Below, in pieces: positions 1 through 40,135 of a stretch of DNA of 64,000 nucleotides. Source of the DNA: Fistulifera solaris (taxonomy: Eukaryota); the NCBI GenBank assembly GCA_030295235.1, contig AP026162.1, forward strand, positions 434,001-498,000, given 5' to 3'. The position numbers were made by a program, and so were the translations under genes. The stretch's first letter is position 1. Each line of letters opens with the position of its first letter. The notes under the pieces were generated by a model. It was not told the DNA's origin and searched no databases. It saw only the letters and a list, made by a program, of their open reading frames with translations.

Positions 1-114
1 AATTCATAAGCTTCAAAAGGAAGAAGTGTTCTTGATGCGAAGATCCCGTAGGCTACTCCCCACCAATCAATCACTCCACCATATTTCCAAAACATAATCG
101 ATAGCTTGCGCCAT

Positions 115-1431
115 CTAACCGACGTACAAACTGCGGTCGATGACGGGAGGAATCGGTCGAATCTCTGTTCCAAGTTCTTGTTCGACACGACGCAGATTGG
201 TTCTGTCCTCATTGCTGATCAAATTGACAGCCAATCCCAGGTGGCCGAATCGTCCCGAGCGACCGATGCGGTGCAAGTACGTTTCACTATTCTTCGGGAA
301 GTCGAAGTTGATGACGACGTTCACCGACTGGATGTCAATACCTCTGGTAAAGAGATCCGAAGTGACAAGGTGTCTTGTAGCGCCGTTGCGAAACTCGTGA
401 AACACACGGTTGCGGTTTGCTTGCTGCATCTTGGCGTGAATGTAGTAGCACGAATATCCAAGCTCTGTAATCTTCTTGGCCAAGAGCTCCACTCGGTTCA
501 CTGAGTTGCAAAAGATAATACTCTGGTTAATCTCAAGTTTGGTGAAAAGAGTGTTGAGACAGTGAACCTTTTGACGCTCTTCGACGTAAGCGTAAAACTG
601 AGTGATACCACGGAGGGTCAATTCGTCCATGAGATTGATGCTGTAGGGGTTGGGGACAAATTTTTACAGAAGCCCTTGACAGTGACGGGGAACGTGGCGC
701 TGAAAAGGCAGATTTGATGATCCTCATGACATTGTCCGATGATCTCTTCAAGAACCGGCTGAAACTCCGGAGAGAGAAGCTTATCGGCTTCGTCCATGAT
801 AATAGTTTTGACCTTGCTGAGGTCAGCCACTTTCTTCGAGCCGAGGTCGAGAATACGACCTGGTGTTGCGACGATAATGTGGACCGAATTGTAAAGGCGC
901 ATGATATCGTCTTTCAAGGATGTACCTCCCGTGGTCACCATGCACTGGATCCCCATGTGCTTGCCCATTTCTTTGACAATAGCAGATGTCTGCAGAGCCA
1001 GTTCACGTGTAGGGATCAAGATCAAGACTGCCGAAGGAATCAGAATCTGCTTTAGCGACACAGCTCAAGAAGGCGTGATCGGAAAGAGATTACTTACCCT
1101 GAATAAAGTCCTTCGTGGTGTCGGTCTTCTCTAAGCATGGGATGATGTAAGCAGCTGTCTTTCCCGTCCCGTTTTTCGCGCGGGCTAAAACGTTGCGGTT
1201 CTGTAGAATAACAGGAATTGCTTCTTCTTGAATTGGGCTAGGCTTTTCAAAGCCCTTTTCGAATATACCCATCAGCAGTTCGCGCTTGAGAAAGAAATCT
1301 TCAAACTCTCGTCCTTTCGTATCCGTTACATCTTCTGTTTTGTAGCGGGTGTCTTTTGGTGGTGCGGTGAGACCGTCGCGATACGATCCGTTCCCTCCTC
1401 CGTTGTTCGGAGGGTTTTGAACCGATGCCAT
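115..1431 (-). CDS. DDX6: DEAD-box RNA helicase DDX6/Dhh1 (2 exons; intron ~1028-1097; homopolymer frameshift ~661)
   Basis: Motifs [27 protein letters not shown] and [10 protein letters not shown] are present. GTAAG...CAG intron. One added A in the A-run at ~661 joins ORF 618-1061 to ORF 115-630. Confidence 0.95.
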
Positions 1432-28622: not shown

Positions 28623-29727
28623 TCAAATAGTGTCTTTCATTGAATCAATTTGCTGCATATCATCATTTTCAAGAAAACCAGGGTTTTCTCCGAGAAGACG
28701 AGCAAGTTGTTGAATGTGGTTCTTGTTGCTCGACCTCGGTATGACGCTCATCCCTTTCTGTAACGCCCAACTCAAAACAACTTCGGCGGTGGATCGCCCG
28801 TGTTTGTTTGCAATAGATTGAACAAGAGGACTACCTAGTACAGGGTTTCCAGATACAGAGCGGTGCTGTGTTCCTCTGCATCACCAATAATGAAGGGAGT
28901 CAGTTTGCAGTATTGAATAAGTTCTACGAACACCACGGTTGACTTACAAAGTACTATACGACACAAATTCAATATCGTGTTCCCGACAAATCCTTCTGAG
29001 TTCATCAGCTGGACGAATGGGATCGGCAAACGCCTGGACGACATCTGGTTTTCGGGGAGGAGGATCGCCATGCTGAATATCACCGCTCTCTTGTCGTTGC
29101 TTTACGAATTGTAGAATGTCCAAAAGTTCGTCCGGTCGTACATTTGACAAGCCGATTCGTTTCGCGGAGTGATCCAAGCCTACGACAGCTTCCATTGCTT
29201 GCCAAGCAGATCGGAAATCAAGAGTGGGAGGAGGATTATCACAACGAGGATGCCAACCTTTCCAACAAGCCGGGGCATGAATGTAGTAGACATCGAGAGG
29301 ATACGGAATCGATTTCTCCGTCGCAATTCCCGTGCTCTCATCTGTAACAGCTATCAACGTTTCATCACAAAAATCCCAAAAGCTCTTCTCGACTGGCGGC
29401 AGCATGAGCGCGAATGTCATCAAAGCTCGTCAAACTCCACGGTGGAATCTTTGTCGATATGCGAAGCTCTTCTACTTGACAGGATTTACCACAAAATTCC
29501 GCAGAAACACACGTCTGATCTTCCTCTTCGTTCGTCGGCTTGAAGAAATAATGGGAAAGTGCTCTTCCGACACTGGTTTGATCGTACCACCAATCTGCTT
29601 CGGCTGTATCAAACTTACGAAAGCCGGCTTCGAGGGCAAGACCGACAATGTCAAAGCACGATCCACCCAATGCGGCCGTCCCGAAACCAACACCAATGGC
29701 TGTAGAATTATTGTTCGTGTAGAACAT
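28623..29727 (-). CDS. Aldo/keto reductase (frameshift ~29372; intron ~28876-28947)
   Basis: VGFGTA, ALEAGFRKFDTA, ISTK, LDVYYIHAP, IGLSNV, SYSTLG and AEVVLSWALQKGMSVIPRS. The last exon was translated manually to TGA at 28623. Confidence 0.85.
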
Positions 29728-30856: not shown

Positions 30857-31156
30857 TTATATGTTGCGCGAATATAAACAGATAAGAGGGTAATGTGCTT
30901 AATAAGTATTCGAAACTGCTGTCGAACCATCAGAAAATGGCAGCAGCTTGTTTTTCGAACGGCAACGCAAGAATAAGAAGATGCAAAACTGACAGAAATC
31001 GCACCGGTACGCAAAGTATGGGAGAGACCAAAAAAAATATTCTAAGGCTCAAAGGTCGGAACTCTAGACCTAGGTCTACATTAAAAGATAGAGATTATAG
31101 AGTCAATATTTTGTAATGATCAAAATGAATTAAAGTAAAGGGTTTCGACAGCCACA

Positions 31157-34100
31157 TTACGCCCAGTGAGGGATTACTCTTGGATCAACGTCTTTAAGGA
31201 AATTTACAACACGGCCAAATCCTCTTGGCTGCTCGTCCCTAAGCCGTGTTGCTAGTCTTGGGATTGCTTCTGTGAATAAAGTAGAAAACTGCTCGGTTAC
31301 ATCCATATCATCACCTTGAGTGAAGATGTTGATATCCACATGGCTTCTGCCATCCCATAAGACGATAGCGTTTCCCCCGTGCCACAGGAGGACGTTAATA
31401 CTGCCATCCCCGATGCTGATCTCGAAAACTTCTGCCTTAGCCACTGCCTTATCGTCTATCGACCGAACGACGTCCCTGACGGCTTCTTTAACAAGGGCAC
31501 GAGTTAACACAAAGGGTCATCTGTCCGAGGCACTTTCTCGACGATTTTTTTGACTTTCTCCTCTCCGTCAACAATGATGGTTTTTTCCGTAACAACCTTG
31601 TCAATTATAGGTTCGACCTCGAGCTGAAGAACCGTTTGTCTTCCGAGCGGTTGCTGGGAGTTCCATTGCTGGAGAGGGGCGCTTTGATCGTAGTCTTTTG
31701 GAAGGAAGAACTGGGAGGGTTTGAACTTTGGTGTGTACCTGAAAAGACCACCTTGCACATTGCGAACGTCCGCTTCTAACTGTGTATCCTTTTCTATACT
31801 TTGAGAAACGCTAAGCAGTCTTTCAAAGAATCGTTCGTCTCCGGAAGACACAACGCCCATTTCCAAGCTGCTATCAGAACTGTTGAAGAAAACTTCGGCG
31901 CGGAAGACTGGTTCGAGAACGATAAAATCCCTTCGGAAGCGGTCCAAAAGTGCCCTTCTCCATTCCTCTGTTAAGTCTAATGAGTTGGCGATGACCAGAA
32001 CATCGTCTGCGAGTATCTCCTCTCTTGTGAACCTGCTTCTGAAGACCCTATGTATGATTTGGCCAAACTCATATGAGACAGCGTCATCCAATACAACAAC
32101 ACGGAACGCCTTGGCTTTAGCGGCTTCCGTAATGGTCGACAGTACTTCCTTCTCGCAGGCGAGCTTCGCGCTTAGAGCGTACTCGTTCTTTAGATTGATT
32201 CCTTGGCAAGTCCACACGGGAACCACCGTTCCCTTCGCTGCTTCCTTAAGAACTTCTAGGCTGTTGCACACGGAGCTTTTGTCCCCACAGAAAACAAGGG
32301 CACTGTAGTCGGTGTCCTTAACTAGTTCTAAGGCTCTCTTCAATACCGTTTTTGAGACCTGACTATCCTCGGGGGACTTGCGGGCCACATCTGTTTTTGA
32401 ATTACACTCTCGTGTGAGTCGAGGTCCTCGACTCTTTTCATCTTGTTTCCACGACTGTATGCCGAACATACCACCCGCAACAATGCGGTAAGATGAAGAG
32501 GAGTGTTCGCCGCTAGTCCCTGTCAATTGAATTGCAGCTTTCTTGATACTCTCATGTGCATCGAATTTAGCCCACATGTGGATATCAAACGCACAATAAT
32601 TATGCTGCGGCCATCGCCTGGCTACTACGTAACCCTCCTCAAGTAGAACAACAACGGCAGCACCTGCCGATTCCGTCGATTGCGAAAAAGCTTCGACCAC
32701 TTTGACTCCAACAGCTTGCAGAGAGGACACGAGTGCGCTCTGGAATTTTTCCGTCGATTCGAGAAGAGCCGCGGCATTTTCCGTCTCGAGGACCATCAGA
32801 ATACCCGGGCTTCGCTTTTGCTCTGTTATCTCTTCTTCAACGTCATCAGGGTTCTTGCAAGTTTTTTGCAAACTGGCTTTCTTCTTTCTTCGGTAATCGT
32901 GCCAGCTTTCAAATTGGAACTGACTGTCGTCGAAAGGGCTAACGAAAAGATTAGGTCCGGTCTCATGGTTAATAGGGTGTTTGTACAACATGTCATTTGC
33001 GTAGCTTCCAAAGACCAAAGCTTGAGTGCAAATCACGGGAACATCTCTGAAATGAACTTGGACCGTGTAGTCAAAAATTTCACTAAACTTTTCGAGGTAC
33101 AACTCATTCTTCACAATAATGCCGTCGGGTTTCAATAAGAGAGCAAGAGCGCCAAAGATATCGAGTCCATCTGTGACTGTCATGGACATTACTGTTTCGC
33201 TTAAATCCACGAGGACCATGTCAAAAGAACCAAAGTAATCGCTAGGAAGCATCAAAAGGCTCTTGGCGGCGTCTCCGTACCACCACTGAACTTTCTCGTT
33301 ATCCCAATGTGGCTGCGTTCCAAAATGTTTGAAGCTTCCTCTCGTGACTTGCTGGTCCAATTCCAATCCAACCACCAACTCCAATGAAGGGTATTTGATG
33401 ATTTCATGCAGCAACATCGAATCACCGCCACCAACAAAGAGCACTCGCTTCACTGTATCAAAGAAACGAGCTGTATAGTGGACTACCATTTCGTGGTAAT
33501 GAGCGCGATAGCTACCGCAAATCTGTACAACGGTATCAAGTTCAAAGCATGTGTCCTTGTTCTCCGGATTGTGAAAGAATGCAATCTTCTGATAGAGCGA
33601 CTGGGTAACCTCCAATACTTTGTATTTGGGGAATTCCATGGTTCGACCTTGTTTACAAAGATAGGACGTATAGTCTAAATGATCCCGTTCTTCCTGCAGA
33701 GCATCGTATCGAGGGCGACGACTTTCGTCTCCTTCGAGAAGCACTTCGCAAGACCCAGAGCCGTTGTTGGTCATGTCCGTACACTGGTGATCCAACTCGT
33801 TGGCCGATTCAATGGCATGAGCGATAGCGTTCATCAACGCATCCAGAAATTGTCGACACATTAGTTCTTCGTGTGCTGGCACGTTCAATTCCTCCTGAAA
33901 ATCAGCCCTATAAACATCTTCCAGGCGAAGGAGTTCCCCTTCCAGAAATTCGATTCCATCGTCCGGAGGCTCATCGAATAACCACGTGACTTGCATAACT
34001 GTGCTGACCTCCCCTGCTTCGTTGGTATGTTCGACTTCATCTATTTCAAAGCCAAGATTGTCGTACTGATGAAAGATCCATCTCTGCGGATACTGTTCCA

Positions 34101-34884
34101 CAAAACCATAATCGCGAAGGATCTCCGGAGTTCCGTAATCACTGTCGCGCGAACCACAATCCACGCAAAAGTTGTAGGACGTATACAGTTCTTCACCAGG
34201 CTGAATGTCACGCGAGGCTCGCACGGTCACATCGTTCGTGTTGTAGTGGACGGATTCGCATTCCGTGTTCAACCATTTGCCATTCCGATGACTCAACATG
34301 TCGTACACTGGAATCAACACATCATCCCAACTTCGCTGTAGAACGATAAGATACGCATCTTCCGTGAGATCATCCGAGTACGGATCCTTGCATTCTTCTT
34401 CAAAGGTATATCCAAAAGGAACTTCGGGAGGCAAGAATTGTGCGTCTTCGTGGCGATCGACGAGGATTTTCTCGAGCAATTCTTGACCTTCTTCTGACCA
34501 GCCGTTCGGAAGTTGTCCGGTGGGTTGATCGAGTAAATAGTTGACATACGGTGCGTATTTCGATTCTTTTCCCAATCGCATTTCGCGTACCAAATGCTTC
34601 ACCGTGTAGCATTGGTCCTCGTAGCCTTCGGCGGTGATGAGATATTCACGAGGTATGACGAACAATGTCGCATTTGCGGGTATGAAAGTCGTCGCAAATG
34701 CACCAAACGGAGAAGACAAATCTTCGGGATTGTAACGTCGAATTTCGATACCTTCATGAACAAAGCCGGTCGGAGCATCTTTCACCCACTGCACAAGAGC
34801 TCGTACATTATCTCCCATTGGATCTTCCGCGGCCCGGATTCTCTGGGAGAACAACAATACTATGATCGACTTGAGCCATATCAT
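31157..34884 (-). CDS. Multidomain fusion: signal peptide + SET methyltransferase + aminopropyltransferase (spermidine synthase fold) + two degenerate AdoMetDC-like domains (frameshift ~31512)
   Basis: SET: FGAFAT, IPVYDMLSH, ASRDIQPGEELYTSY, LRDYGF. Aminopropyltransferase: YHEMVVH, RVLFVGGGDS, LELD, GDA, FDMVLVD. AdoMetDC-like: VVVLLEEGYVVARRWPQHNYCAFDIH and VLLWHGGNAIVLWDGRSHVDINIFT. Confidence 0.85.
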
Positions 34885-35348
34885 GGTGTTTCTTTTTTCT
34901 TTACTGTAGCATGTAGCTACGATGATGAATGATTTGTTTTTATCAGTATTCAAAGCTTTGATTGCACGAGCTTTTCTTCATTTATGTCATTGTCTTTCAT
35001 CGCTTCATCGCGCATCTTTTATTGTTGTCGATGGTTCGGATTTCTCACACGTGCACATTACCATGAAGAGTGTTTTTGGACTATGGTATGACTGTACTAT
35101 GTACCCCTGAGGTTTAAAGGATGTACAGTCAGATTGTTAAAAATGAAACGTGTATGTCTTTCAACGGTTAAAAATTGGCGAACCATCCCGACCGTCCGAT
35201 AGTCGTCCGTGGCGCACCTCTGCACCTCACCCTTCATCGACCAAGAAAACAAAAGAATGAAAAACCGCTTTTCCATAAAACACAATAATAATTCGAGGGA
35301 CTCGCATCGTCCTCATTCGTCTGCATTTGCTGATAAAGCATATTCATA

Positions 35349-38063
35349 ATGATAGACCCGCATATTGAAGACAGTGATGATGATTCTGGTTTTGGTTTGG
35401 CGAACTTGGATTTTCATGGTGTCGATTTTGATGCGGCAGAATTGACACATGCCGAAATGAATGCTTTGAATTGGGAACGGCAACTTCCATTTCACGCTGC
35501 CTCGCTTCAATTTGACGACAAATCTCAAAATGACTTGAAAATCATCAAAGAAATAGAGGAACTTTTGTCTACTGGTCGCTATGTCGATGTTTTGAGGGGA
35601 ACAAAAGCACAAGAACTTTTTCGGGGATACACACAAGGGGTTTCACCCTCCGAGTATCTTCGACAGCAAGTTCATTCGCAGGGGCAGACTGTTTTGAGTT
35701 GTATAGAAATCGAGTGCATAGCTGTTGCGGCCTTGAACCTCTTTTTGCAAGCCAACTACACCGGCCCTTCTCTGGAAGTTTCGGACGTGCTTGACATCAA
35801 TCCACACGCGTGTTTCTCCGAATGGCGGGATTTATCCGTTATGGAACCAAAGAACACCACTGATGAAACAAAAGAAGAGAAGAAGTCTAGTGTTACTAGC
35901 GGGAAAAGAAACAACGCCTACCAGAATGCAATCTTAGCAGAATTAGCGGTGGATGGTATATGGCCGGTTCAGGTATGTCAGGTGTCGTACTTTCTCTGGT
36001 TGGCGCGCACCATCTTGGCAGCGTTAAATGATTCTCAAGCGCCAATCTACGAGTATTCACGACACTTGAAGGGTCTTTCTCTTTGGAAGAGTCGTTCTAT
36101 TGTGGCGCACGAGCGTTTATTACATTCACGCGAACCATCACAAACGTTATGGGTCGAAGCGCAGAATACGTTTCGGTCGTGTCTTGAGATCTACTGTGAC
36201 ACAAGTTCCCCTGAGTATCGCAGTGAAGGTGCTACGGTGATGTTGGAATGGGGTCTGGCGCAATTTCATTTTCAGAAAAAATCTCTTCCTACCTTCCGAA
36301 AAGCACAGAATCTATCGGGGTTGACGGTCGAGGTTACTGGCTCCATTGGTAAACGAACCAAGTTCCAACAAGAAGCTACCGCCCAACTGTTAGTCCGAGC
36401 CCAATCTACGGTTCCGGCATCCGAAACAACTCCGTCCAAAAACACGGCCTCGCTCCAGCGTGTCGAACATTCCAATGACGAAATCTTGCTGGAGAAAATT
36501 CAATTTGACGATGAACGTGATATGGAGATCAAGCCCTTGACCATTTTAGACCAGTCTATTTTGATGGCATTCTGTTTGGATGTCAAAGAAAGCAATGCGG
36601 CCGACGAACTCACGGCAGAAGAAATGGGTGCTTATCTAGCCCGGGTTTTGGATCATCACGATGATTGGATGGTGTACTCTACGGCGTTGTTGGAACGATC
36701 GTGGCTCGAGTTTGAACGAACACATGCCCGAGAACGAGCCATATTACAGATCCAGGCTTTGGTGGATCAACACACCAATCGACTGACCATTACCCAGTCG
36801 ACGGTGAAAAGTATCGAAGAGTCTGCCCCGGTACAGGTTCGACTTCGAAATCTGCACTTGATTGTGTATCCACCGCGATGGTCGATGATACAAGACTTGG
36901 CGGATCGGTACGCCAAGCTAGGGATTGTGACCAGTGCCGCAGAGTTGTACACCGATATTGAGTTTTGGAATGATGTCGTGGATTGTTATCGCCGCGCCGG
37001 CAAAATGGCGACAGCCGAAGCCATTGTTCGTGAACGTTTGGAAATGGAAGAGTCTCCTCGCATGTGGGAGGCCTTGGGTGACATTACGAACGATCCAACG
37101 TGTTTTGAAAAGGCTATTGAAGTGTCACACGGCCGTTATTCCAGTGCTTTCTTGGCGCTCGGCTCGCATTACTTTGAAAAGGGACAGATCGAGACGGCAG
37201 CAGAATATTATGAGAAGGCACTGAAAATTAGACCGCTTGTAACATCCGCATGGTTTCGCCTCGGCACAATTCAAATGCAACTAGAACATTGGGAGGCGGC
37301 TTTGCGGGCATTCTCAGAAGTCGTGCAGCAAGAGCCAGAGGAATACGATGCGTGGGCTAACGTTGCCGCGATTCACATGAGACAACGAAGACCAGCGGAA
37401 GCTTATCCAGCGTTGATGGAGGCGTTAAAGTACAACCGGAACAATTGGAGAGTATGGGTGAGCAAATTATACACCTGTCTTGATTTGAACAAGTTCGACG
37501 AAGCCGTTCAAGCCTGTGAGATGCTGCTCGATCTGCGGAAAGCCAAACAGGCTTCCGATGGCATCCCTCCTCTGGAAGAGCGTTGCGTGCGAGCGATTGT
37601 CGGCGGGACGTTGAAAGAGTTCGAAGCTAGTGCTGGTAATGAAATCCAATTAGATTCTTGTAGAAGGACATTATCGCGTGTCCATGCGCTGCTGGAACGA
37701 TTAAGTACCTCGTCGGATGCCGAACCCTGGATGTTTGAGACAATGGCTGTGTTCAACCAGGCAGTAGGACAAAACGAGGAAGTTCTCGACAATTTGCTCA
37801 AAGAATACCGATCTTTGCAAGCAGTGGCGGGCTGGGAAAAGGATGATAAACTTGTGATCAAGATTTGTCGAGTTGCATCGCAGATTAGCAATCTGTACTG
37901 TCAGAAGGGTGACAAACAGAATTTGACCAAAGCACGCTTTCTAGTGCGCGGAGTCAATCAAAAGATTGAAGCGTCGCGACCAGGAGACAATACTATTCCC
38001 GAAGAAGTTCTTCAGCTTTCCAAAGTGATGGATGAAATCGAGACAAAGCTAAGCAGTCTCTAA
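35349..38063 (+). CDS. TTC27: TPR protein TTC27/Emw1-like
   Basis: FLQANYTGP, GKRTKFQQ, DWMVYSTALLERS, ERAILQIQALVDQ, TPR repeats and NWRVW. Confidence 0.85.
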   Translation: MIDPHIEDSDDDSGFGLANLDFHGVDFDAAELTHAEMNALNWERQLPFHAASLQFDDKSQNDLKIIKEIEELLSTGRYVDVLRGTKAQELFRGYTQGVSPSEYLRQQVHSQGQTVLSCIEIECIAVAALNLFLQANYTGPSLEVSDVLDINPHACFSEWRDLSVMEPKNTTDETKEEKKSSVTSGKRNNAYQNAILAELAVDGIWPVQVCQVSYFLWLARTILAALNDSQAPIYEYSRHLKGLSLWKSRSIVAHERLLHSREPSQTLWVEAQNTFRSCLEIYCDTSSPEYRSEGATVMLEWGLAQFHFQKKSLPTFRKAQNLSGLTVEVTGSIGKRTKFQQEATAQLLVRAQSTVPASETTPSKNTASLQRVEHSNDEILLEKIQFDDERDMEIKPLTILDQSILMAFCLDVKESNAADELTAEEMGAYLARVLDHHDDWMVYSTALLERSWLEFERTHARERAILQIQALVDQHTNRLTITQSTVKSIEESAPVQVRLRNLHLIVYPPRWSMIQDLADRYAKLGIVTSAAELYTDIEFWNDVVDCYRRAGKMATAEAIVRERLEMEESPRMWEALGDITNDPTCFEKAIEVSHGRYSSAFLALGSHYFEKGQIETAAEYYEKALKIRPLVTSAWFRLGTIQMQLEHWEAALRAFSEVVQQEPEEYDAWANVAAIHMRQRRPAEAYPALMEALKYNRNNWRVWVSKLYTCLDLNKFDEAVQACEMLLDLRKAKQASDGIPPLEERCVRAIVGGTLKEFEASAGNEIQLDSCRRTLSRVHALLERLSTSSDAEPWMFETMAVFNQAVGQNEEVLDNLLKEYRSLQAVAGWEKDDKLVIKICRVASQISNLYCQKGDKQNLTKARFLVRGVNQKIEASRPGDNTIPEEVLQLSKVMDEIETKLSSL

Positions 38064-39017: not shown

Positions 39018-40135
39018 ATGACAACGCCGGCCAAAGATCAGTGCAAATCGGAACTGAAAGCTCGTATCGTGTCGGGAACGATTGGGTCCATCATCACCTC
39101 GTTAGTTGTGACGCCGCTCGATGTCGTCAAAATACGACAGCAAGCTGCGATACCCGATGTTCAAGTAGCACCGAACTTAATACGCTGTCCCCGGGGGTGC
39201 GGTACTTTTGTTGTATTCAATGGGCACATGGACTGTGTCTTGTCCAAACAGTCGGTTTCTTACTTTGATTCTATGGGAGGTCTGACGCAACAAGCCAAGG
39301 CTTCAGCAACGAATGGAGGAGGACCGTTGCGATTAATGCGAACCATATTTGCCACGGAAGGATTGCGAGGGATCTATGCGGGTCTTTTTCCGACTTTGCT
39401 CATGGCGGTCCCCAATACGGTTCTTTACTTTTCGGCCTATGACGAATTCATTTACTGGCTCCGGAAGCGTTCGAATGATGCCAGTTGGGCGCCTTTAGTG
39501 GCAGGTGGGTCTGCGCGGTTTTTGGCCTCTTCGATCACGGCGCCTCTCGAAGCGTTGCGTACCAGGCAAGCGGCGGCGGGGCAAAGTGCGATCACTCTCG
39601 GATTGGTTGGCGATTTACAAAGAATCATCCGTAATGAAGGACTGGGTTCTGTTTACAGGGGATGGAGACCAACCATGTGGAGAGATGTTCCATTTTCGGC
39701 TATATACTGGCTGTGTATAGAAGAAATGAAAGCCTATTTGCTGACACGCTTGGATCACTCACCTTCTCGATCCGAACAGACCGGTATCTCCTTCATCAGT
39801 GGCGCTACTGCAGGGTTAATTGCCGCAGCTTGCACTACACCTTTGACGTTGTGAAAACAAGACATCAAGTAGCGAACATGCAGTTGGCCGAAACGATTGT
39901 TGATGCTCAATGTTTGCACGATGGAGCGAGTGCTTACCGTCCACCCACGCAGACAACGACACAGGGCACATTCAGTGCGCTACGAGAGATTGCGAAAAAG
40001 GAAGGAATCGCTGCTTTGTGGACAGGAAATCAAGCACGGATGCTGAAAGTTGCCCCGGCTTGTGCCATTATGATTTCAACGTACGAGTTTGGCAAGCTTA
40101 TACTGACAAAGGATCACTCAGGTCCCATGGAATAG
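39018..40135 (+). CDS. Mitochondrial carrier, SLC25A39/40 (Mtm1)-like (frameshift ~39843)
   Basis: TPLDVVKIRQQ, Cys-containing loop with NGHMDC, PTLLMAVPNTVLYFSAYD, RDVPFSAIYW and KVAPACAIMISTYEFGK. Confidence 0.88.

Follow-up and report, generated by a model that had tools for sequence, protein, structure and literature searches.

How diatoms produce the long, N-methylated polyamines that serve as templates for their silica walls is an unsolved problem, and gene fusions proposed in 2011 are candidates for this synthesis. The abstract of that proposal is said to describe a version with a catalytically dead AdoMetDC, in one case with a Tudor domain, and to assign it to silaffin modification. 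We know of no experiment on any member of the SET-aminopropyltransferase-AdoMetDC fusion family. The available text of several reviews credits Michael (2011; FEBS Lett 585:2627) with proposing AdoMetDC-aminopropyltransferase fusions, with or without a histone N-methyltransferase, and with the suggestion that long-chain polyamines are made, methylated and transferred by them (PMC3820600, PMC12029483, PMC6356823, PMC4483651); a passage in a paper that the same laboratory published in December 2025 still names these diatom fusions as needing study. As the class is described in excerpts of two of these reviews (PMC3820600, PMC12029483), it unites an aminopropyltransferase with a bacterial-type AdoMetDC domain and, in some members, a histone N-methyltransferase domain; the gene analyzed here brings those three domain families together in a single diatom protein and would share the proposed long-chain polyamine role. 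It adds no new class and is a further member of a known diatom fusion class, in line with the first-pass annotation of this DNA, which had called the general class not new. What we contribute is a full-length, intron-free gene model, a domain map of the C-terminal half, and a residue-level argument, drawn from sequence, that the aminopropyltransferase and SET domains look alive while, in each of 104 relatives, the decarboxylase is dead.

Dead AdoMetDC folds have described precedents. The trypanosomatid AdoMetDC prozyme (5tvf) is a catalytically dead AdoMetDC fold kept for a non-catalytic role, and it forms a heterodimer with a live AdoMetDC, which it activates. Human spermine synthase (3c6k), which has bacterial AdoMetDC-aminopropyltransferase fusion ancestors, joins a dead class 1b AdoMetDC-like domain to an aminopropyltransferase-fold domain. 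According to the portion of a recent paper available to us, this dead N-domain is needed for dimer formation and for activity (PMC12803844). For the methyltransferase part, the closest described proteins are SETD3, SETD6 and Rubisco LSMT, which, in the sections consulted of one paper, share an elongated helical domain that touches the protein substrate in LSMT, target Lys or His of proteins, and have, in Tyr312 of SETD3, a residue conserved among SET domains that is linked to the binding of SAM and to activity (PMC6684798). A 2020 study of seven genes (Mar Biotechnol 22:551), as described in papers that cite it, suggested cell-wall proteins and long-chain polyamines as the targets of diatom-restricted SET proteins (PMC11151724, PMC11554505); at the level of those descriptions, the likeness to our protein is a diatom-restricted SET domain.

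Within the window, a 64,000-nucleotide stretch of Fistulifera solaris DNA, a single intron-free gene occupies positions 31157-34884 on the minus strand. The window record splits it into a 1126-aa open reading frame (31504..34884, minus strand) and a +2-shifted 119-aa frame (31157..31516). The cause is a one-base shortfall at 31510..31513 (gene on the minus strand), where the window reads AAA on the plus strand and outside contigs read AAAA. An extra A after plus-strand position 31510 is present in the contigs of all four covering public runs (X1, X2, X3, and X5; three from one organism and one from an independent wetland metagenome, two studies in all), and in every one of these runs, the depth with the inserted A equals the total depth. 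The X1 contig is otherwise identical to the window across 643 bases. Because four of four runs carry the extra base at full depth, outside sequence data back the one-base homopolymer correction (ttt becoming tttt on the gene's own strand), which joins both pieces into a 1242-aa frame. Three of the runs reveal another single-base discrepancy in the window record, at 34893; hence, indel errors do occur in this record.

The corrected frame is collinear with P0003, a 92%-identical Fistulifera solaris protein of 1242 aa that reads straight through the frameshift site (...DDPFVVTR). Their alignment is free of gaps, with 1040 of 1125 residues identical in the main frame and 107 of 119 in the shifted tail. 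The start codon (ATG, 34882..34884, minus strand) is the first ATG of the main frame and aligns with P0003 residue 1, the stop codon of the corrected frame (TAA, 31157..31159, minus strand) closes the shifted frame, and the C terminus (...PHWA) agrees with both P0003 and the family consensus. The gene is intact, and the single frame of ~1240 residues after one homopolymer fix that the first-pass annotation had drawn is borne out. That annotation had also raised the prospect of transcripts in which SET and aminopropyltransferase are separate genes; in the MMETSP set, the transcript-derived 'type:complete' ORFs P0012 and P0018 unite SET, Spermine_synth, and AdoMet_dc. The protein has at least 408 relatives, and all of the named ones are from diatoms, including P. 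tricornutum P0025 (43% identical over 95% of the query). Residue-conservation counts below refer to 104 relatives, and N-terminal counts to 114 relatives that start with Met.

Residues 1-19 (34828..34884, minus strand) are signal-peptide-like by a hydropathy heuristic (MIWLKSIIVLLFSQRIRA, with the likely cleavage site before an Ala). The hydrophobic core, of about 8 residues, is short; acidic residues follow, with Ala-Glu-Asp directly after the likely cleavage site. By the same heuristic, a hydrophobic 9-residue window lies within the first 45 residues of 94 of the 114 Met-starting relatives, while 0 of 19 columns are conserved at 90% or more; a hydrophobic feature kept without its sequence behaves as expected of a signal peptide. 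A hydropathy scan found no further 19-residue window with a mean of at least 1.6 anywhere in the protein. Conservation among relatives is at least 89% for fourteen cysteines, and the protein holds three N-X-S/T sequons. The protein is thus probably soluble and lumenal, within the secretory pathway (the ER, the Golgi, or the route to the silica deposition vesicle). Of the signal peptide in the first-pass annotation, the conserved hydrophobic stretch stands; cleavage is a prediction from the heuristic and from conservation.

The SET domain and its C-terminal helical domain span residues 20-374 (33763..34827, minus strand). Pfam SET matches residues 60-238 (34171-34707) with 36.5 bits against a cut-off of 22.4. 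A family profile searched against the PDB found SETD3 (3e-6), SETD6 (1.1e-3), and LSMT (5.3e-3), all of which a single-sequence search missed. An AlphaFold2 model of residues 20-374 matches SETD6 (3qxy; Z 21.2, 291 residues aligned), SETD3 (6mbj; Z 21.0, 307 aligned), and LSMT (1mlv; Z 19.4, 304 aligned), so that profile and fold, the latter over about 300 residues, confirm the LSMT/SETD3 class assigned earlier. At the motif level, DMLSHRNG corresponds in the alignment to DMCNHTNG of SETD3, and GEELYTSY to GEQIYIFY. The second Tyr of GEELYTSY falls on SETD3 Tyr312 and is Tyr in 86 of 104 relatives, and His199 of the (N/S)H motif is kept in 102. The core, the helical domain, and the conserved Tyr are thus shared with SETD3, SETD6, and Rubisco LSMT, but identity is about 14%-19%, and the residue before the conserved His, Asn in SETD3, is Ser here (Ser in 52, Asn in 32, and Arg in 12 of 104 relatives). 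Unlike in those enzymes, the SET domain of the diatom protein is joined to polyamine enzymes and is probably lumenal. We judge it active-looking, and it should move a methyl group from SAM to an amine nitrogen; to our knowledge, no SET enzyme methylates a free polyamine.

A Cys-containing linker at residues 366-414 (33643..33789, minus strand; pLDDT below 50; 2 of 49 columns conserved at 90% or more) leads into a spermidine-synthase-type aminopropyltransferase at residues 410-660 (32905..33657, minus strand), which has an N-terminal beta part and a Rossmann catalytic domain. In spermidine synthases, the GGGD(GG) loop binds the donor, E-x-D contacts the ribose and adenine, and the Asp of D-S-S-D is catalytic. 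The corresponding motifs are GGGD (485-488), ELD (508-510), D538, and D560-L-S-E563, and they align with GGGDGG, EID, D, and DSSD of P. falciparum spermidine synthase (phmmer against the PDB, 2.1e-13). Pfam Spermine_synth (PF01564) matches residues 462-594 with 60.3 bits (cut-off 22.9), and the AlphaFold2 model of residues 410-660 superimposes on 2e5w with Z 23.6 and an rmsd of 2.8 over 233 aligned residues (Foldseek E 3e-15). This is the most conserved domain of the protein, with 82 of 246 columns conserved at 90% or more and a mean identity of 59% versus 30%-40% for the other domains. Among the 104 relatives, GGGD is present in 104, E508 in 103, D510 in 104, D538 in 102, Y463 in 101, D560 in 103, and E563 in 93, with Asp in 5 more; the GGGD motif and the catalytic-position Asp (VDLSE) reported in the first-pass annotation are therefore family-wide features. 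The domain looks catalytically competent and should transfer an aminopropyl group from decarboxylated SAM onto an amine. Its glycine loop is GGGDSM, not GGGDGG, and Glu replaces Asp as the second acidic residue; hence, its acceptor or activity may differ from those of spermidine synthases.

To examine the C-terminal half, we used an AlphaFold2 model of the 92%-identical P0003 in place of the window's own broken frame. A first AdoMetDC-like half of class 1b type lies at residues 690-828 (32401..32817, minus strand). Pfam AdoMet_dc (PF02675) matches its residues 705-787 with 37.5 bits (cut-off 25), and in the model this half aligns 117 of 120 residues with Aquifex AdoMetDC (2iii) at Z 15.7. The pyruvoyl-forming Ser63 of T. 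maritima AdoMetDC aligns with Gly751, both in 1tlu and in its S63A mutant 1tmi, and this position is Gly in 104 of 104 relatives, as is Trp771 Trp in 104 of 104. The second half (residues 1127-1233 of the corrected protein; 31187..31507, minus strand) falls below the Pfam AdoMet_dc threshold (13.9 bits against 25, E 0.069), and its hhalign match to the first half is in register but weak (probability 29.7%, E 5.6e-4). At its processing position, 51, 20, 6, and 5 of the 104 relatives have Gly, Glu, Ser, and Thr, respectively, with no conserved serine. Of the two AdoMetDC-like segments annotated earlier, the first thus stands on sequence, whereas the second fails on Pfam and is recovered by the fold of the P0003 model. 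The prefix 'pseudo' that the segments had been given is well earned: Gly at the pyruvoyl-serine position means that the module cannot make decarboxylated SAM, and because the self-processing Glu-Ser site is absent, we call the module AdoMetDC-like rather than an AdoMetDC.

Between the halves, the model places a degenerate Rossmann domain of the class I methyltransferase fold, roughly 200 residues long (838-1044; 31753..32373, minus strand), that the first-pass annotation did not describe. Residues 838-1044 have no Pfam match, and profile comparison with the upstream aminopropyltransferase gave no similarity (hhalign probability 0.26%). By structure (VIA-align), its best matches are catalytic domains of spermidine synthases, namely 3gjy (Z 10.2, 174 aligned) and the T. 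cruzi enzyme (Z 9.9), the latter in a tie with the PrmC-like 4dzr (Z 9.9). Only 7 of its 207 columns are conserved at 90% or more, the spermidine-synthase motifs are missing, and the domain is probably non-catalytic. A lineage-specific Lys/Glu/Val-rich insert follows at residues 1078-1119 (31528..31653, minus strand); it is gapped in most relatives (consensus gaps 1092-1126), and the model folds it into three long beta strands (model positions 391-432). Human AdoMetDC (1jl0/1msv) aligns 216 residues spanning positions 1..544 of the model, and thus both halves (Z 13.9-14.1), and T. brucei AdoMetDC/prozyme (5tvf_E) aligns 195 residues across both (Z 11.6). In the model, the two halves form one AdoMetDC-like sandwich within a single chain.

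This arrangement recalls both precedents and departs from each. For the C-terminal half, human spermine synthase ranks first in Foldseek (E 1.9e-8, about 390 columns). In the diatom protein, however, the Rossmann domain after the dead half lacks aminopropyltransferase motifs, and the active-looking aminopropyltransferase lies upstream; the second half would complete the sandwich in one chain rather than by dimerization; the domains are placed differently relative to each other (rmsd 13.7 over 247 residues); and a SET domain and a signal-like N terminus are added. Relative to the trypanosomatid prozyme, both halves are dead and in one chain.

Taken as a whole, we think it fairly probable that the gene encodes a lumenal enzyme with two active-looking domains that builds N-methylated polyamine chains, with a non-catalytic C-terminal module. 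The data show an intact gene, its domain architecture, the conservation of its residues, a dead decarboxylase and membership of the family, whereas location, both activities, the substrates and any tie to silica are inferred, as is the first-pass reading of polyamine extension and methylation in the endomembrane system for biosilicification. The enzyme, of about 1220 residues, would be soluble in the secretory-pathway lumen of a Fistulifera-like diatom. Its aminopropyltransferase would pass aminopropyl groups from decarboxylated SAM to an amine, its SET domain would put SAM methyl groups on an amine nitrogen, and alternation of the two steps would yield N-methylated oligo-propyleneimine chains, either as free long-chain polyamines or growing from the lysine side chains of silaffin-type wall proteins; either role is plausible, and silaffin-lysine modification is at least as likely as free synthesis. 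In favor of a silica role are the diatom origin of all named relatives and the function proposed for such fusions in 2011. In the C-terminal 550 residues, two dead AdoMetDC-like halves would flank the degenerate Rossmann domain as one sandwich, with a role that is probably structural, in oligomerization or in ligand binding, like that of the dead N-domain of human spermine synthase. Since the protein cannot make decarboxylated SAM, the aminopropyl donor would come from another enzyme or a transporter, and the 'assembly machine' of the first-pass annotation is not self-contained. We know of no lumenal source of decarboxylated SAM.

A cytosolic site, or one on the cytosolic face of a membrane, would solve the supply of cofactors, because SAM and decarboxylated SAM are both present there, and the short hydrophobic core and heuristic signal call would allow an uncleaved N terminus. 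We nevertheless consider this location very improbable: the hydrophobic feature persists in most relatives over a stretch with no strongly conserved column, acidic residues follow it directly, and the fourteen cysteines are kept. The signal-like N terminus and these cysteines also sit badly with cytosolic housekeeping and so weigh against an ordinary polyamine enzyme, making, for example, spermidine, thermospermine, or norspermine, that is fused to a regulatory protein methyltransferase and has no specific silica role. Such an enzyme would explain why the aminopropyltransferase residues agree with standard spermidine synthases, and diatoms have many aminopropyltransferase paralogs, Nitzschia inconspicua having 8 standalone and 32 fusion proteins in the part of the source available (PMC12803844). 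However, the three-part architecture is kept in at least 104 diatom proteins, with diatoms the only named relatives, and GGGDSM and D-L-S-E are consistently unlike the housekeeping enzymes, which leaves this explanation with little to recommend it. The faintest prospect of all is that the window copy is decaying, with a real frameshift at 31510 and a protein that ends at residue 1126 without the second AdoMetDC-like half. The main frame of the record does have a TAA at 31504-31506, but the extra base is in all covering contigs from two studies, in X1 with no other difference, the shifted tail is 90% identical to its homolog P0003 without a stop, and the discrepancy at 34893 marks a record with indel errors.

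A more serious competitor, possible though doubtful, is an enzyme that works on protein substrates only, methylating lysine epsilon-amines of silaffins, cingulins, or similar proteins and starting or extending polyamine chains on those lysines, with no free long-chain polyamines. The passage of silaffins through the secretory pathway agrees with an enzyme that bears a signal, and P. tricornutum P0025 has a weak, below-cut-off Tudor-like match (E 0.0054), reminiscent of the Tudor case reportedly assigned to silaffin modification. The SET domain also keeps, at fold Z 19-21, the helical domain of the LSMT/SETD3/SETD6 class, which contacts the substrate in LSMT according to the excerpted source (PMC6684798). 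On the other side, sequence looks the same for a lysine-bound and a free amine, and this proposal overlaps with the lumenal chain-building enzyme that we prefer rather than excluding it. Spermidine-synthase-type enzymes, moreover, are known for small-molecule acceptors.

For the C-terminal 550 residues of that preferred lumenal enzyme, a bolder idea, which we rate as a long shot, is that they are no mere relic but a fossil AdoMetDC-aminopropyltransferase unit rebuilt as an intramolecular pseudo-dimer, its two dead AdoMetDC halves gripping the degenerate Rossmann domain, which as a module would bind the growing chain or a nucleoside cofactor or product and would thereby set processivity and chain length. 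If so, the pseudo-dimer module would be a molecular ruler and could explain the species-specific lengths and methylation patterns of long-chain polyamines.

The window record carries an ATG-to-stop open reading frame of 1126 aa at 31504..34884 (-) and another open frame, shifted by +2, that starts at 31516, overlaps the first by 13 bases, and reaches its stop codon at 31157-31159. The best database relative, P0003 (a 1242-aa F. solaris "hypothetical protein," 92% identical), reads without a break at 31510 (...PRTDDPFVVTR...), and both window pieces align to it free of gaps (1040/1125 and 107/119 identical). We aligned contigs of four public runs (three from one organism and one study, the fourth an independent wetland metagenome) to window 30900-35300. 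Every covering contig, in 4/4 runs, has an extra A behind + strand position 31510, with an insertion depth equal to the total depth (15.9, 22.6, 11.9, and 10.6); apart from this base, 643 bases of a contig of X1, one of the three same-study runs, agree fully with the window. The frameshift at 31510 is therefore peculiar to the window record, either as an error or as a private variant. The gene (31157-34884, -) is a single continuous frame of 1242 codons, which confirms the frame of about 1240 aa that the first-pass annotation had obtained by one homopolymer correction. An intron in place of the frameshift is out, given so short an overlap, a homolog that runs through without a gap, and outside contigs that show a one-base insertion rather than a splice. 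Joints inside the gene were absent from the contigs of all four runs; no run listed as carrying the region is recorded as RNA, and three of the four are merely guessed to be RNA, so a single exon is argued from the unbroken frame and the collinearity of the homolog.

Another version of the gene, with differences at ~8-10% of positions, is present in these runs (window 32460-34600; e.g., X1 records 3/4 and 6/7), and paired contigs of the two versions show 0 versus 22 or 31 differences from the window. The divergence matches the 92%-identical P0003 and points to a pair of homeologous copies in a single organism. A further indel discrepancy of the record lies in the 5' leader at window 34893 (+), 9 bases 5' of the start codon, where contigs of X1, X3 (same study), and X5 (the wetland metagenome) have one base fewer; X5 contigs also carry small insertions at 34920-34928. 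Just 3' of the stop codon, one X5 contig skips 127 bases (window 31009-31137, ends CG..GT); a deletion at strain level in the 3' flank is more likely here than a splice.

At least 408 relatives with E ≤0.001 were found among 7999 candidates scored, and those named are diatoms only (Fistulifera, Phaeodactylum, Seminavis, Nitzschia, Mayamaea, Epithemia, Corethron, Odontella, Ditylum, Chaetoceros, Entomoneis, and others). Conservation was counted in 104 of 120 listed relatives, the 16 left out of the alignment (P0011, 13, 15, 17, 58, 59, 70, 80, 88-92, 104, 105, and 107) being near-duplicates or N-terminally short forms. Pfam places SET at residues 60-238, Spermine_synth at 462-594, and AdoMet_dc at 705-787, all above the curated cut-offs, and we regard the domain architecture described below as close to certain. 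Window residues 1-660 were modelled with AlphaFold2 on 61 aligned sequences (mean pLDDT 81.8, residues 366-414 disordered); residues 20-374 of the model superpose on human SETD6 (Z 21.2, 291 aligned), SETD3 (Z 21.0, 307 aligned), and pea Rubisco LSMT (Z 19.4, 304 aligned). A sequence search with the family profile returned the same three (SETD3 3e-6, SETD6 1e-3, and LSMT 5e-3); only profiles recovered this class, as a PDB search that used the SET region as a single sequence gave nothing but an unrelated helicase (E 0.42). The family profile and the fold match (Z 19.4-21.2) agree with the LSMT/SETD3-class SET domain noticed at first pass. In the profile alignment, DMLSHRNG and GEELYTSY of the window protein face SETD3 DMCNHTNG and GEQIYIFY. 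The second Tyr of GEELYTSY, a Tyr in 86/104 relatives, occupies the position of SETD3 Tyr312, which one study describes as the only one of the pocket residues to be conserved among SET enzymes, and links to SAM binding and activity (PMC6684798). The His of the SET motif is kept in 102/104 relatives and is preceded by Ser (52), Asn (32), or Arg (12). SETD3 Asn255 faces a family Ala, but in a low-confidence stretch of the alignment where the model predicts a helix.

The aminopropyltransferase is by far the most conserved domain, with 82/246 columns at ≥90% and a mean identity of 59% versus 30-40% elsewhere; 240 of its 246 residues are identical between the two Fistulifera copies. Model residues 410-660 superpose on spermidine synthase 2e5w (Z 23.6, rmsd 2.8, 233 aligned), and Foldseek agrees on this fold (E 3e-15). 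GGGD (residues 485-488) and D510 are conserved in 104/104 relatives, E508 and D560 in 103, D538 in 102, Y463 in 101, and E563 in 93, plus five with Asp. GGGD and D560 are the motif and the catalytic-position Asp reported from the bare sequence. Alignment to P. falciparum spermidine synthase gives GGGDGG, E-I-D, D, and D-S-S-D as counterparts, and we take the residues to have the catalytic roles seen in spermidine synthase structures.

Since the window's own frame is broken in the C-terminal half, we modelled P0003 there (AlphaFold2, residues 688-1242, mean pLDDT 88.1, pTM 0.62). A first AdoMetDC-like half (residues 690-828, P0003 numbering) matches Aquifex AdoMetDC 2iii (Z 15.7, 117/120 aligned) and is followed by a Rossmann/class I methyltransferase fold (residues 838-1044, P0003 numbering). 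Human AdoMetDC has two such halves in a single chain, and both AdoMetDC-like segments of the model match it together, over 216 residues between model positions 1 and 544 (Z 13.9-14.1, rmsd 3.6-3.8); another match, over 195 residues, is the T. brucei AdoMetDC/prozyme chain 5tvf_E (Z 11.6). Thus, the last 116 residues are modelled as a second AdoMetDC-like half, packed against the first. By sequence, this second half falls below the Pfam threshold (AdoMet_dc, E 0.069), goes unreported in whole-protein scans of four relatives, and aligns to the first half marginally, in the right register (hhalign probability 29.7%, E 5.6e-4). Of the two AdoMetDC-like segments proposed earlier, the first stands by Pfam and fold, and the second is supported by the P0003 model. 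Residues 1078-1119 are a lineage-specific insert.

A single-sequence PDB search with the first half gave a weak match (E 0.07) that served for residue register only. Between the wild-type and S63A entries of T. maritima, exactly one aligned position changes, that of the pyruvoyl serine; it faces Gly751 of the window protein and is Gly in 104/104 relatives. The Cys of T. maritima ...LFTCG is faced by Trp in 104/104, and the His of ...IHTWP by Arg in 84 and His in 10 (n = 104); both T. maritima residues presumably have functional roles. With the pyruvoyl-forming serine absent, a pyruvoyl group cannot arise, and the AdoMetDC-like module is a pseudo-enzyme throughout the family, as the first-pass annotation had surmised for this one protein.

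The fold of the middle domain fits spermidine-synthase catalytic domains best, tied with unrelated methyltransferases (Z 10.2 versus 9.9; 3gjy 10.2, T. cruzi 9.9, and 4dzr 9.9). Only 7/207 of its columns are ≥90% conserved, an ESM Atlas search with it gave no usable match, and it is probably non-catalytic. Tandem duplication of an aminopropyltransferase-AdoMetDC unit is unsupported by sequence, hhalign detecting no similarity between the middle domain and the upstream aminopropyltransferase (probability 0.26%, aligned stretch out of register), and the fold match is ambiguous. Human spermine synthase, in which a dead AdoMetDC-like domain precedes the aminopropyltransferase, is the top Foldseek match of the whole C-terminal half (E 1.9e-8), but domain placement differs (rmsd 13.7).

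The first 19 residues comprise M-I-W-L-K, a hydrophobic core, and ...R-I-R-A-A; E-D-P comes next. A crude test (mean hydropathy ≥2.0 over nine residues within the first 45) was passed by 94/114 relatives that start with M, seven others being excluded, and several of the 20 that failed plainly begin within the SET or aminopropyltransferase domain. The feature is kept and its sequence is not (0/19 columns conserved). The window protein has no further hydrophobic segments, three N-X-S/T sequons, and fourteen cysteines that are ≥89% conserved in the 104 relatives. These features would fit a soluble lumenal or secreted protein. The cysteines include a C-x-x-C pair at residues 240-243, just behind the SET catalytic motif, and positions 92, 165, 379, 410, 446, 456, 619, 827, 866, 873, 893, and 910, each kept in about 90-100%.

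We lean, with some reserve, toward a protein in which live transferases build N-methylated chains and the AdoMetDC module is dead. Two live-looking domains that pass groups from SAM-derived donors to amine nitrogens would be joined in one signal-bearing chain and could build N-methylated oligo-propyleneimine chains stepwise: a propylamine unit would come from the aminopropyltransferase, and the amine so formed would then be methylated by the SET domain. The dead sandwich probably has a structural or ligand-binding role; the dead N-domain of human spermine synthase, required for dimer formation and activity according to one paper (PMC12803844), is a precedent. The enzyme is unable to make its own aminopropyl donor, a consequence that the first-pass annotation did not draw, and a lumenal supply of decarboxylated SAM must be postulated. 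The first-pass idea that the protein both extends and methylates polyamines is upheld in architecture and plausible in function, and loses self-sufficiency. As for the acceptor, the sequence seems neutral between a free chain and a chain on silaffin lysines. Descent of the SET domain from protein methyltransferases leans to protein-bound chains, as does a review's summary of Michael (2011); that the chains would be exclusively bound to silaffin lysines, with no free polyamines made, we judge rather doubtful.

Tudor-like insertions occur inside the SET region of some family members, and the window protein is without them. In the relative P0020, Tudor-like PF21743 and PF18359 are precomputed (two places), and a similar stretch lies near its C terminus. 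In the P. tricornutum relative P0025, a Tudor-like profile is weakly matched within the SET region (residues 107-135, PF21743 E 0.0054, below cut-off), consistent with the dead-AdoMetDC/Tudor subclass that Michael is said to have described in 2011. That subclass reportedly has a catalytically dead AdoMetDC, in one case with a Tudor domain, and was assigned to silaffin modification; we found no literature joining these three elements. Diatom fusions of a bacterially derived AdoMetDC with an aminopropyltransferase, some also carrying a histone N-methyltransferase domain, are credited to Michael (2011) in four articles (PMC3820600, PMC12029483, PMC6356823, and PMC4483651). The window gene belongs to this known class, in line with the first-pass remark that the general class is not new. 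Two further articles (PMC11151724 and PMC11554505) credit Nemoto et al. 2020 with SET methyltransferases specific to diatoms, for which a comparable role is proposed. The literature found, as far as its accessible text extends, comprises reviews and transcriptome studies, with no functional study of these fusions, and a December 2025 paper counts 32 in Nitzschia inconspicua and calls them still in need of study (PMC12803844). Two features are possibly new: the modelled arrangement in which two dead AdoMetDC halves pair within one chain around a degenerate Rossmann domain, and the loss of the pyruvoyl serine throughout the family.

Among the neighboring loci, an aldo/keto reductase at window 28944-29727 (-) is split over two overlapping frames, 29365..29727 and 28944..29420, whose Pfam matches (E 3e-4 and 4e-4) are both just under cut-off; the split may reflect a single-base record indel, as at 31510, or a short intron. 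The divergent neighbor of the gene encodes a 904-aa TPR-repeat protein (35349-38063), and window 39018-39854 (+), 4 kb away from the gene, encodes a member of the mitochondrial carrier family (Mito_carr, E 2.7e-41); both are neighbors by position alone.
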